From: Bdellovibrionales bacterium
GTDB lineage: Bacteria; Bdellovibrionota; Bdellovibrionia; Bdellovibrionales; UBA1609
Direction of reading: 5' to 3'
Length of the DNA stretch: 64,000 nt
NCBI GenBank assembly: GCA_965205945.1
Contig: CBDBIB010000002.1
Location: 96,001-160,000, forward strand
Part shown: positions 33,001 through 36,000 of the stretch, piece after piece
Layout of the letters: each line of letters starts with the position of its first letter
Numbering within the stretch: the first letter of the stretch is position 1
Made by a program: the position numbers

Positions 33001-36000
33001 ACATTTAAGGACTGGGGAGTAACAACTGTTGAGAGCCTGGAGGCTGGAAATGTTATATTAAAAGACAGTTCTACAGAACTATGGGCCTCAGGAGGCCTTA
33101 GATCAGGTCTTGATGCGGCAATATGCTTTGCTTTAGGAGCAAAGTTTTGTGGCTTTGCAGGCCCTATGGTTAGAGCCGGACTTAAGGGTTTAAGAGCTGT
33201 GGAGTCATTAATGGATCAAATTGAATATGAGCTAAAAATTGCTTTGTTTTGCACTGGAACCTGCTCTATTAATGAGCTTAACAAAGAAAAGGTTTTAGAG
33301 TATGGAGCGTAATTTAAAAGGGTTTTCAAAATTAAATAGATATGAGCGCTTTTCTAAGCTTCAAGAAATGGGGTTTTTAGAAAAAGAAGATATTAAGCTT
33401 TTAAAAGAATCTTTGTTTTTAAAAAAAGATTTAGCTGAAGATTTTATTGAAAATTCTTTAGGGTATTTTCCCATTCCTTACGGAGTGGTGACACATTTAA
33501 AGGTTAATGGAAAAAAAATACTGGTTCCCATAGCTGTTGAAGAGACTTCAATTATAGCAGCAGCAAGTAAAACATCTAAATGGATAAATGATAATAAGGG
33601 ATTTATTCGAACAAACAGAGTTTCTCGTGAAGGTATTGGACAGATTCAGTTTTCGCATATTAAAGATAAAGAAAAATTTTGTAAGATTGTAGAACTTAGT
33701 AGCCCTGAGTGGGTTAAACTTTGTAATAAATCTATTGCTAAATCTTTATTTAAAAGAGGTGGTGGAGTAAAAAGATTTACCCCTAGAATTATAAAGCGTC
33801 CTGATAAAGGCTTTATGGGTGTGATACATGCTTATGTAGATACATGTGAAGCTATGGGTGCAAATGTAATCAATCAGGTTTGTGAGTTTATGCAGCCTAC
33901 CCTAGAAGCTGAGCTTTTAGAAACTCCAACTATATGCATTCTTTCAAATTTAATGGATTCAAATTTGACAAAAGTTACAGTTGAATTTGAAGTTGATTCT
34001 AAGCTTGGTTATAAAATACAGGAAGCATCATATTTTGCAGAAGTTGATTCCTATAGGGCTGCCACTAATAATAAAGGCATTATGAACGCGATTGATTCTG
34101 TTTTAATAGCTACAGGGAATGACTGGAGAGCTGTTGAGGCAGGGGCTCACTCTTATGCGGCAAGAAGTGGAAAATACTCATCTTTAGCAACATGGAGATT
34201 TACTCCTTATAAAGATATTTCTTTAAAAGGGCTTTTAAAAGGTGTTATGCAAATACCAATTTCCATAGGAACAGTGGGAGGGGTAACAAAGCTTCATCCT
34301 TTTGCACGGCTTTCTATGAAGCTTACTGGATCTAATAATGTTGATGACCTTGCTGGAGTTGTAGCTGCCATAGGTCTGGTTCAAAACCTTGGTGCTTTAA
34401 GAGCTCTTACAACGGTTGGAATTATTAAAGGGCATATGAGACTCCATATTAAGAATTTAGCTTTAGGGGCTGGAGCTAAAGAGAATGAAGCTTCTCATTT
34501 ACAAAAGAAACTAGAAGAGGTTTTAAAAATAACAAAAAGAATTTCTTTATCTCAGGCTAAAGAAGTTTTAACTGAAATGCGATCAGTTTTAAAAGTTAAA
34601 AGATCTTAAAATTAGAAAATTTAAAGGGGATAACAAGTGAATATACCCAGCAAAACATTTTTAATGGGTGAATACACTGTTTTAAATGATGGGAGCGCTT
34701 TAGTGCTTGCACATGAACCATTTTTTATTGTAAAAAATAAAATCCCTAAAAAAACCCTTCACCCAGAGAGTCCTGCTGGAAAGTTTTTAAAACAAAAAAG
34801 TAAAGAACAGAATTTTAGTTTTTTTGACCCACATAAACAATCAGGTGGTTTTGGTAGTTCAACGGCAGAATACTTAGCGGCATATAAAAGTGTATTTCCT
34901 GATGCTAGTATAGATGAGATACTAAAAACTTATTTTAAAAATTTTGAAGAAGTTAAAATTAAACCTAGTGGTGCTGACTTATGTGTGCAGTCTTATTATA
35001 AAAAAGGTGTTTTAGAATATAAAAAAAAACCATTAGACCATAGTTTATACGACTGGCCGTTTAAGGATTTAGATATTTTGATTTTTAAAACAAAAGATAA
35101 AATAAAAACACATAGTCATTTAGATGTTGTTTATTTAAAAAATTTAAGAACTCTAGGAGTAATAGCGAAAAAAGCTATTGATTTTTTTAAAGTAGGAGAT
35201 TCTTTAGGTTTTTTAAATTCAGTGGATTTATTTACAAAGGAACAGGCAATGCAAAGATTGCTTCATAAAAACACAATAAGACTTATATATGAAGTAAATC
35301 AAATAAAAGGGGTACATACATCTCGTGGTTGTGGTGCTATGGGAGCAGATGTCTTAACTGTGTTTGTAAAGCCTTATTTAAAAGAGTATGTTTGTGAACA
35401 AGTATTAAGTAAAGGCTTGGGTTTAAAGGTTGTATTAAAAGTATTATAGGAAATGACAATGAATAAAAAAAAATGGAATGCTAAAGCACCCTCTAATATA
35501 GCATTGATTAAGTATATGGGTAAAAAAGATGAAAGGCTTAATATTCCTGATAATCCATCACTTTCTTATACATTACCACATTTGCTAACTAAAGTTGAAC
35601 TTGAGATGACAGATGATCTTACAGATTCTTGGGAATCTTTAAATTATGGAGAATGTTTTAAATTAGAACTTAAGTTAAAAGAATCACAAAGGTATTTAAA
35701 ACATTTTAAGTTTATTAAAGAAAAATTTAATATAAAAAAAAATTTTATTGTCAGATCAGCAAATAGTTTTCCTGAAAATTGTGGACTAGCAAGTTCAGCT
35801 TCAAGTTTTGCCGCTTTGACTAAGATCTCAGTAAAAGCTTTTTCTGAAATAAATAACATATCAATTCCAAATATAAATGAGATAGCGGACTTAAGTCGCC
35901 AAGGTTCAGGGTCTTCATGCAGGTCATTTTTTAGTCCTTGGTGCGTCTGGAATAATGAGATGGTGTCTGAAATAGTTTTTCCACAAAAAAATCTTCTTCA

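Follow-up and report, generated by a model that had tools for sequence, protein, structure and literature searches.

A highly divergent GHMP-fold kinase family as the probable phosphomevalonate kinase of Bdellovibrionota and Legionellales

Which enzyme converts mevalonate 5-phosphate to mevalonate 5-diphosphate in bacteria whose mevalonate operon has no gene recognizable as a phosphomevalonate kinase (PMK)? The question is raised by a 64,000-nt stretch of the genome of a Bdellovibrionales bacterium (contig CBDBIB010000002.1, positions 96,001 to 160,000; the whole stretch is hereafter called the window), in which a tightly packed plus-strand operon is arranged in the order IDI2-HMGR-g00666-MVD-MVK. 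The first gene encodes type 2 isopentenyl-diphosphate isomerase (IDI2/fni, 32216..33312, +; TIGR02151 and tblastn) and is split over two frames in the window: the ORF at 32449-33312 matches TIGR02151 (1e-72) beginning at profile position 58, residues 6-78 of the IDI2 of a relative (L008) align by tblastn at 32216-32434 in another frame, and a frameshift lies near 32430. The class II HMG-CoA reductase gene (HMGR, 33302..34609, +; PF00368 1e-81; TIGR00532 3.8e-89, above cut-off) precedes g00666 (34637..35449, +), which is followed by genes for diphosphomevalonate decarboxylase (MVD, g00667, 35453..36427, +; TIGR01240 6.5e-45, PF22700 2.9e-34, PF18376 1.4e-9) and mevalonate kinase (MVK, g00668, 36434..37315, +; TIGR00549 4.2e-37, PF00288 2.4e-11), the latter with a GEH motif and 128 bits against the TIGR00549 cut-off of 163. 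According to a 2026 review, PmvK is absent from all Legionella species analysed, which is why Legionella was not scored there as having the mevalonate pathway, and the existence of alternative enzymes was raised as a question (PMC13001223). C. burnetii CBU_0608 is annotated as 'phosphomevalonate kinase' in a table of PMC7549970. Searches on Bdellovibrio, Legionella, Coxiella, GYDIA and a missing bacterial GHMP-type PMK, with most subscription journals outside their range, found no publication assigning a function to the g00666 family.

The candidate PMK gene g00666 encodes 270 aa from a GTG start, 7 nt downstream of a Shine-Dalgarno-like AAGGGG (34624..34629, +); the assignment is based on the ORF, the predicted GHMP fold, and the context and distribution of the family. 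The initial annotation had described it as the one operon gene lacking any family match and as a highly divergent GHMP kinase. The first point was borne out: at E<=10 neither Pfam nor NCBIfam gave any family match, PF00288 and PF08544 included, so that neither reaches its gathering threshold; g00666 is not among the matches of a PF00288 scan of the genome, and the protein has no match (E<=10) to TIGR01220, TIGR00549 or NF040656. When searched alone against PDB sequences with phmmer, g00666 found no significant match. The family profile, on the other hand, recovered only GHMP kinases among PDB matches with E<0.01, as had been claimed and with E-values in keeping with the magnitude first given: 1kkh (7e-9), 1vis (8e-9), 3k17 (8e-9), 2x7i (8e-7), 2hfs (2e-6), 2oi2 (3e-6), 1k47 (8e-5), 3gon (1.6e-4) and 8teb (8e-4). 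The AF2 model of g00666 (pLDDT 94.2) has the two-domain GHMP fold, and the structures it matches best are phosphomevalonate-bound PMKs, with about 12-14% identity in the structural alignment to canonical PMKs; the ranking of PMKs over galactokinases is within the tie margin of the tool. With 1159 clusters at 50% identity, this is a large and unrecognised family of GHMP-type kinases without a Pfam or NCBIfam model: the Pfam annotation is blank for 120/120 homologues among the matches listed, the RefSeq label is 'hypothetical protein', and in the ESM Atlas the only matches were clusters of the family itself, labelled 'Mevalonate kinase family protein' or 'hypothetical protein', and clusters of generic GHMP type.

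The three GHMP motifs noted in the initial annotation (PSKTFLxGEY, GGFGxSxA and KGCGAxGAD) were found again in new alignments of 30 and 144 family members, together with an additional invariant PSGxD. In the 144 sequences (about 30% identity) the three motifs are invariant or nearly so, and they line up with those of PMKs and MVKs. Motif I of g00666, PSKTFLMGEYTVL (34646..34684, +), contains the invariant Lys6, Glu12 and Tyr13 of the family alignments. Motif II, the phosphate-binding loop SGGFGSSTAE (34841..34870, +), aligns to GLGSSaA of PMKs and MVKs, and G71, G73 and S75 are invariant in the 144 sequences. PSGAD (34964..34978, +), with invariant Ser111-Gly112-x-Asp114, corresponds in the alignments to SGxD in MVKs and PMKs, and in the L. 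major MVK 2hfs to PSGADN; motif III, GCGAMGADV (35327..35353, +), carries a PMK-type Asp238 in the family alignments. Q118, T158, H159 and H161 also count among the invariant residues of the family. Two positions separate the 23 canonical PMKs from the 32 MVKs sampled. The first is the last residue of the motif I triplet, which reads GEY in 142/144 family members and 23/23 PMKs, and GEH in 31/32 MVKs; the second is the motif III Asp, present in 126/144 family members (16 were missed by the search pattern) and 23/23 PMKs, the same site being Gly in 17/32 MVKs (15 missed by the pattern). By these alignments the family bears the PMK-type signature residues in place of the MVK-type GEH and Gly.

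Profile comparisons do not place the family nearer to PMKs than to MVKs. Weak matches of 30 family members to NCBIfam models were mostly to the MVK model TIGR00549 (19/30, best 2.8e-10, far under 163 bits), followed by NF040656 (10/30, best 2e-5), TIGR01220 (4/30, best 1.4e-3) and TIGR01219 (1/30, E 0.11), and hhalign scored the family at 105.7 to PMK and 115.1 to MVK, with a probability of 98.6 to MVK. In the phylogenetic tree the g00666 family and the PMKs do not group together but form clades of their own (SH-aLRT 98 and 100, respectively); the placement of the family outside PMK plus MVK is weakly supported (77) and comes with a long-branch warning. Both profile and tree set the family about equally far from PMKs and MVKs. 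One might read g00666 as a second, divergent mevalonate kinase, or as a paralogue that is regulatory or inactive, with a bifunctional MVK, a GHMP kinase encoded on contig C1 of the same genome, or an unrelated enzyme performing the PMK step. The predominance of MVK among the weak model matches, the slightly higher hhalign score to MVKs, the UniRef label 'Mevalonate kinase' on three Legionella members and the existence of the third GHMP kinase on C1 all speak for this reading. We nevertheless regard it as unlikely: the operon, like the other family-bearing genomes in which kinases were compared, already has a regular GEH-type MVK, the family has GEY and Asp instead of GEH and Gly, and catalytic-type motifs invariant in 144 sequences at such low overall identity argue against an inactive protein.

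The other candidates within the genome (1.87 Mb, 97.3% complete) were also weighed. The initial annotation had counted only two other GHMP_kinases_N genes, and PF00288 matches at three places, namely the C1 kinase, MVK and, weakly, MVD; the label 'heptose kinase' given to the C1 protein (333 aa) is not established, as it scores 78 bits with the HddA model against a cut-off of 600. The C1 kinase was rejected as a general PMK because it has no pathway neighbours and its type is absent from many family-positive genomes: no more than two PF00288 genes were found in 10/61 family-positive Bdellovibrionota, and exactly two in 50/78 Legionellales. Where located, the PF00288 genes of such genomes are MVK and MVD, and these form an adjacent MVD-MVK pair in the Legionellales examined. 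TIGR01220 found nothing in the genome at E<=10, the single match to PF04275 (E 1.8) lies elsewhere in the genome, and across a sample of 151 genomes of the phylum TIGR01220 matched at E<=1e-5 in one. The TIGR01220 cut-off was reached in 0/14 control genomes, Lactococcus lactis included (which did match at E<=1e-5), so these genome-level negatives are weak and PF00288 counts were used in their place; both PF00288 and PF08544 are present in 120/120 of the canonical PMKs listed. The claim that DXP-pathway genes are lacking agreed with our searches for DXR and IspH, the two genes tested, neither of which was found in the genome; the g00666 enzyme would therefore sit on the only isoprenoid route. 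These results support g00666 as the only plausible carrier of the PMK step; in this one genome the C1 kinase might conceivably act there instead.

The distribution of the family follows that of the pathway. As had been proposed for the order, the family was found in all 23 Bdellovibrionales genomes sampled (E<=1e-10; 11/11, 9/9 and 3/3 in families f1, f2 and f3-f5, respectively). Among 151 Bdellovibrionota genomes it occurs, at the same threshold, in 61/94 with MVD and in 0/57 without, and all 61 family-positive genomes carry MVD. It is present in 76 of 78 scored genomes of Legionellales and absent from two, three further genomes being unscorable. In two Legionellales genomes of about 0.5 Mb, HMGR and HMGS have been lost and IDI2, the g00666-family gene, MVD and MVK are kept; in one of them (G164) IDI2 lies beside the family gene and MVD beside MVK, and the other has the same match counts. 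A redundant paralogue would hardly persist in genomes of this size, a further point against a second MVK.

The initial annotation had named HMGR and MVD as the flanking genes: HMGR is directly upstream in 79/80 loci, but MVD is found in only 29/80, because most of these loci are from Legionellales, where the MVD-MVK pair is some 9-11 kb away (located in 3 genomes). The order IDI2-HMGR-X-MVD-MVK, in which X is the g00666-family gene, is kept in loci of the Bdellovibrionota type, and one MAG locus has the family gene and MVD in a single 654-aa open frame; a search for fused relatives of greater length (474-2000 aa) gave none at E<=1e-5, a result the tool itself rates as weak evidence. Some Legionella carry second family copies in clusters with HMGS and HMGR, two of three such clusters having an MVK-like gene and one a polyprenyl synthetase as well. 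In one Coxiellaceae MAG the family gene stands apart from the pathway genes, and an extra MVK/PMK-like domain is fused to HMGS. The possibility that g00666 phosphorylates an unrelated small molecule and is merely carried in the operon draws on the galactokinase fold matches, which are as good as those to PMKs, and on the failure of any family model to name the protein. We consider it very improbable in view of the HMGR linkage across two phyla, the perfect co-occurrence with MVD in the Bdellovibrionota sample, the retention of the family in minimal genomes that otherwise keep just MVK, MVD and IDI2 of the pathway, and a pathway step that is otherwise unfilled.

The context evidence would suit any kinase acting between mevalonate and isopentenyl diphosphate (IPP). 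In a haloarchaeal or Chloroflexi-like route the enzyme called MVD would decarboxylate mevalonate 5-phosphate, and g00666 would serve as a non-homologous isopentenyl phosphate kinase or as some other non-canonical kinase of a modified route. A decarboxylase of the phosphomevalonate type would leave the isopentenyl phosphate kinase role open, since no AAK-type enzyme of this kind was found in the genome, whose AA_kinase genes number three: PyrH and two aspartokinases. The window MVD lies under the TIGR01240 cut-off (153.5 bits against 171), yet its score with this diphosphomevalonate model is far above that with NF040704, the model for phosphomevalonate decarboxylase (56 bits, cut-off 475); MVDs of relatives exceed the TIGR01240 cut-off in 43/151 genomes of the phylum, and the L. 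adelaidensis gene is named diphosphomevalonate decarboxylase in RefSeq. We assign the window MVD to the diphosphomevalonate type by NCBIfam scores, as the accessible text of PMC9254496 gave no residues that tell the two decarboxylases apart. The PMK-type GEY and Asp and the PMKs with bound phosphomevalonate at the top of the structural matches also weigh against the monophosphate route, and g00666 has the GHMP fold and not the amino-acid kinase fold of isopentenyl phosphate kinase (NF040647). We judge this route improbable. An equally improbable variant keeps the fold and changes the substrate: the family would not be PMK but would use the GHMP fold to phosphorylate a different intermediate, of which isopentenyl phosphate is the most plausible, in an undescribed bacterial lower mevalonate pathway shared by Bdellovibrionota and Legionellales (MVK, followed by a monophosphate decarboxylase and a GHMP-type isopentenyl phosphate kinase). 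Such an enzyme would account for the separate clade outside PMKs and MVKs, a position not nested in PMKs that would suit either version; we know of no GHMP-fold isopentenyl phosphate kinase.

All computational lines agree in making g00666 a GHMP-fold kinase of very divergent sequence with a link to the lower mevalonate pathway. Its initial designation as the best candidate for the missing PMK is upheld by the fold, the motifs and signature residues, the conserved place in the operon, co-occurrence with MVD and, in many genomes, the lack of another candidate. We propose that g00666 is probably an ATP-dependent phosphomevalonate kinase (EC 2.7.4.2) representing a distinct, unmodelled family of the GHMP superfamily, both the substrate and the functions of individual residues being inferred. 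Translated from the operon, the enzyme would take mevalonate 5-phosphate from MVK and pass mevalonate 5-diphosphate to MVD; the motif II loop (GGFGSSTAE) would bind ATP and, as in other GHMP kinases, the acceptor site would be lined by Lys6, Glu12, Tyr13, Ser111, Asp114 and GCGAMGAD, the loop of motif III. The family most likely carries the PMK step reported missing in Bdellovibrio-like predators and Legionella. It offers a concrete candidate for the PmvK gap of Legionella, given its presence in nearly all sampled Legionellales and in about two thirds of MVD-positive Bdellovibrionota. If the family is PMK, a systematic annotation gap is closed, and surveys that use the canonical PMK model would no longer miscall these lineages. 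At only 270-300 aa, such a highly diverged PMK-like enzyme may also serve pathway engineering.

Among known systems, the canonical GHMP-type PMK (S. pneumoniae PMK, 3GON/1K47; TIGR01220) presumably catalyses the same reaction and has the same GEY and motif III Asp; in Listeria and Streptomyces it is encoded in mvk-mvaD-PMK operons, and g00666 likewise lies beside MVD and MVK. Canonical PMKs are longer, about 335-365 aa, and contain PF00288 and PF08544, whereas g00666 matches neither. Lin0012 of Listeria innocua (3K17, 365 aa), deposited without a functional name, is 93% identical to no g00666-family member, and we take it to belong to the canonical Listeria PMK group. Mevalonate kinases (M. 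jannaschii 1KKH/1VIS, L. major 2HFS; TIGR00549) share the GHMP fold and give the best PDB profile match of the family, but they have GEH and Gly, and the true MVK is encoded two genes downstream of g00666. The animal-type PMK (PF04275) belongs to another fold family, and no P-mevalo_kinase domain is found on g00666. Houten and Waterham reportedly described that enzyme in 2001 as a case of non-orthologous displacement, a precedent for a PMK step filled more than once. A parallel in gene order is the GYDIA family GHMP kinase (NF040656, a 'hypothetical equivalog' without assigned function), which occupies the identical slot IDI2-HMGR-X-MVD-MVK in the Bdellovibrionota family f13, as seen in the 4 genomes fetched of 23 MVD-positive ones sampled. 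Two of these proteins were scanned and score 366 and 356 bits against NF040656 (cut-off 225). The g00666-family profile scores the proteins in this slot at only 1e-6 to 5e-9; GYDIA proteins have GSGYD(I/V)A where g00666 has PSGADL and, like the g00666 family, they carry GEY and the motif III Asp. In one family of Bdellovibrionota, then, a different unnamed kinase family fills the slot of g00666.

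The family gene is a 270-aa open reading frame (ORF) with a GTG start at 34637-35449 (+ strand), preceded by an AAGGGG box that reads 7 nt 5' of the start and separated from the end of the HMG-CoA reductase (HMGR) gene by 28 nt. It is the third of five closely packed genes, the others being the isomerase IDI2 (32449-33312, +; TIGR02151, 1e-72), class II HMGR (33302-34609, +; TIGR00532, 3.8e-89), diphosphomevalonate decarboxylase (MVD, 35453-36427, +; PF22700, 2.9e-34) and mevalonate kinase (MVK, 36434-37315, +; TIGR00549, 4.2e-37). The initial annotation had described an unmatched gene within a mevalonate operon, and this was borne out: the other operon genes are named by models, and the family ORF had zero matches to Pfam and NCBIfam at E ≤ 10 and nothing significant in a single-sequence search against PDB chains. 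IDI2 (fni) is split over two frames, with ~78 N-terminal residues (placed by comparison with a 79%-related locus, L008) at 32216-32434 and the main ORF in another frame, owing to a frameshift or else a sequencing indel within an A/T-rich stretch. Judged from profile scores, the decarboxylase is of the diphosphomevalonate type (153.5 bits to TIGR01240, cut-off 171, vs 56 bits to the phosphomevalonate decarboxylase model NF040704); in the phylum, 43 of 151 genomes have an MVD above the TIGR01240 cut-off, and the available part of PMC9254496 contains no residue-level test of decarboxylase type.

The family protein is a GHMP kinase. Two alignments were built, one of 30 sequences and one of 144 representatives at 50% identity, in which the members are ~30% identical pairwise to the query. 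Invariant in both are K6, F8, G11, E12 and Y13 (motif I), G71, G73 and S75 (motif II), S111, G112, D114 and Q118, and G233 and G236 (motif III). Below E 0.01, every PDB match of the 144-sequence profile is a GHMP kinase, namely MVKs (1kkh, 7e-9; 1vis, 8e-9; 2x7i, 8e-7; 2hfs, 2e-6; 2oi2, 3e-6; 8teb, 8e-4), Lin0012 (3k17, 8e-9) and phosphomevalonate kinases (PMKs; 1k47, 8e-5; 3gon, 1.6e-4). An AlphaFold2 model from the 30-sequence alignment (pLDDT 94.2, pTM 0.91) was matched by Foldseek to MVK, galactokinase and PMK with probability 1.0.

A context scan that took one genome for each species recovered at least 500 loci, and the best 80, from Bdellovibrionota and Legionellales (Legionella, Fluoribacter and one Coxiellaceae MAG), were examined. 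The gene immediately upstream is HMGR in 79 of these 80, the sole exception being the Coxiellaceae MAG locus L034, and IDI2 precedes HMGR in 62; MVD is present in 29 and MVK in 27, and the loci bearing both are of the Bdellovibrionota type or from a few gammaproteobacterial MAGs. The MVD-MVK pair was located in three Legionella genomes, each time on the same contig at a distance of ~9-11 kb. In a gammaproteobacterial MAG (L041, 2340-4301), the family gene and MVD share one 654-aa open frame, which may be an assembly error since only a single MAG carries it. Two other fusions were seen: the Bdellovibrionota genome G041 has a 648-aa MVD-MVK (L097, 5722-7665), and a Coxiellaceae MAG has HMGS joined to an MVK/PMK-like kinase (758 aa; L117, 6585-8858).

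Among 151 Bdellovibrionota genomes, our own included, the family was found in 61 (E ≤ 1e-10) and MVD in 94 (TIGR01240, E ≤ 1e-10); all 61 family-positive genomes carry MVD, and none of the 57 MVD-negative genomes carries the family. The 33 MVD-positive genomes with no strong family match comprise 23 of taxonomic family f13, 8 of f7, G003 and G047, and ten of their operons were fetched. In the four f13 loci, the gene in the slot between HMGR and MVD of the IDI2-HMGR-X-MVD-MVK order (L089, 6793-7860; L090, 6835-7776; L098, 6692-7753; L091, about 7020-7930) carries GEY, GSGYD(I/V)A and GAWGGD. Two of these slot genes were scanned and score 366 and 356 bits to NF040656 (cut-off 225), which makes them full members of that "GYDIA family GHMP kinase" model, classed by NCBI as a hypothetical equivalog. 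The GYDIA family in f13 is a second, unnamed candidate PMK family. The f7 slot genes (L093, 8667-9632; L096, 7159-8055) are related to the present family but divergent, scoring 1e-20 to 1e-26 with the 144-sequence profile, and have GEW rather than GEY in motif I and GAGGGD in motif III. The short contig of G047 holds IDI2, a regular MVK (TIGR00549, 183 bits) and MVD, and is uninformative on PMK because it ends after MVD.

Other candidates for the PMK step were sought in our own genome (1.87 Mb, 97.3% complete). It contains nothing matching TIGR01220 at E ≤ 10 and only an E 1.8 match to PF04275, and its AA_kinase genes number three, PyrH and two aspartokinases, thus leaving no isopentenyl phosphate kinase (IPK). 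PF00288 is found only in MVK, MVD and a 333-aa kinase on contig C1 outside the window (111366-112364; L001, 991-1992, minus strand); the family profile finds a single copy. The initial annotation took the C1 gene for a heptose kinase, a name not upheld by its 78 bits to the HddA model (cut-off 600); it scores 72.6 bits to the MVK model, and its neighbours are unannotated ORFs with no pathway genes. This setting, together with its absence from many family-positive genomes, led to its rejection as a general PMK across the lineages; it might still serve in our own genome. A TIGR01220 scan of the phylum matched 1 of 151 genomes and was given no weight, because the cut-off was reached in 0 of 14 control genomes, including Lactococcus lactis (seen at E ≤ 1e-5). 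PF00288 counts were used instead; all 120 of the canonical PMKs listed carry PF00288 and PF08544, so these counts limit how many classical GHMP kinases a genome can hold. At most two PF00288 genes occur in 10 of the 61 family-positive Bdellovibrionota and exactly two in 50 of 78 Legionellales; in the two of the latter where they were located (G151, G152), they form an adjacent pair resembling MVD-MVK as annotated in L. adelaidensis.

The family was detected in 76 of 78 scored Legionellales genomes (1e-57 to 1e-107), with no match in G213 and G230, and 3 further genomes were left unscored. Two Legionellales of ~0.5 Mb (G164, G175) have no HMGR candidate (PF00368) and each have one family match and two PF00288 matches; in G164 (L120, L121) IDI2 adjoins the family gene and MVD adjoins MVK. 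If the family gene is PMK, these four genes are the set required to convert mevalonate to IPP and DMAPP, and the set places the family gene in the lower pathway. Together with the missing HMGR and HMGS, it suggests that both organisms obtain mevalonate from a host. The HMGS N domain (PF01154) was not found in six genomes, our own, one B. bacteriovorus and four Legionellales (G000, G151, G152, G155, G164, G175), four of which, all but the two ~0.5-Mb genomes, have HMGR. This agrees with PMC13001223 (J Bacteriol 2026), which reports most Legionella species to lack HmgS and every one analysed to lack PmvK, and leaves alternative enzymes for further work. A second family copy occurs in 7 of 78 sampled Legionellales genomes, and the three contexts fetched read MVK-HMGS-X2-HMGR2-polyprenyl synthetase, MVK-HMGS-X2 and HMGS-HMGR-X2. 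These second Legionella clusters (L122, 4997-12367; L123, 6904-9845; L124, 5445-8817), the first with polyprenyl synthetase and a UbiA prenyltransferase nearby, may be dedicated to an isoprenoid product.

With phmmer over 1.84 billion cluster representatives, the family counts 1159 clusters at E ≤ 1e-3, of which 895 remain at E ≤ 1e-10, and no precomputed Pfam domain is recorded for any of 120 listed homologues. An identity look-up of ten clusters gave "hypothetical protein" (NCBI, JGI), which is also the name of the RefSeq member of Legionella adelaidensis, WP_131739729.1 (3.7e-100 to the family profile), which lies between HMGR and a transposase; UniRef calls three Legionella members "Mevalonate kinase", and none of the family clusters or proteins looked up bears the name phosphomevalonate kinase. 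A full-text literature search, its scope excluding subscription journals and supplements of the cited papers, found no publication assigning the family. In the portions available, PMC7549970 tabulates C. burnetii CBU_0608 as phosphomevalonate kinase, PMC4646340 and PMC5941755 say no more than that the mevalonate pathway operates in predators, and the main text of PMC6107057 makes no mention of Legionella or Bdellovibrio.

This is a separate GHMP-kinase family without a public model. We propose that the family gene quite probably codes for the phosphomevalonate kinase that these lineages use, the substrate being a prediction. For comparison, 120 canonical PMKs were collected, and annotated operons in a plasmid collection read mvk-mvaD-PMK in Listeria and mvk-mvaD-PMK-fni-HMGR-HMGS in two Streptomyces. 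Profile alignment with hhalign gave probability 98.2, E 4.9e-14 and score 105.7 for family-PMK, 98.6, 1.3e-15 and 115.1 for family-MVK, and 99.3, 2.7e-20 and 149 for MVK-PMK; the family is thus about equidistant from PMK and MVK, and PMK and MVK are closer to each other than either is to the family. In a quick IQ-TREE tree of 91 rows the family forms a clade of its own (SH-aLRT 98), as do the PMKs (100), and rooting on MVDs placed the family outside PMK+MVK (77), subject to a long-branch warning. At the motif level the family groups with the PMKs in two aligned positions, which would bear on substrate: motif I is GEY in 142 of 144 family members and 23 of 23 PMKs, whereas 31 of 32 MVKs have GEH, and the residue after motif III is Asp in 126 of 144 family members (16 missed by the pattern) and 23 of 23 PMKs, whereas it is Gly in 17 of 32 MVKs (15 missed).
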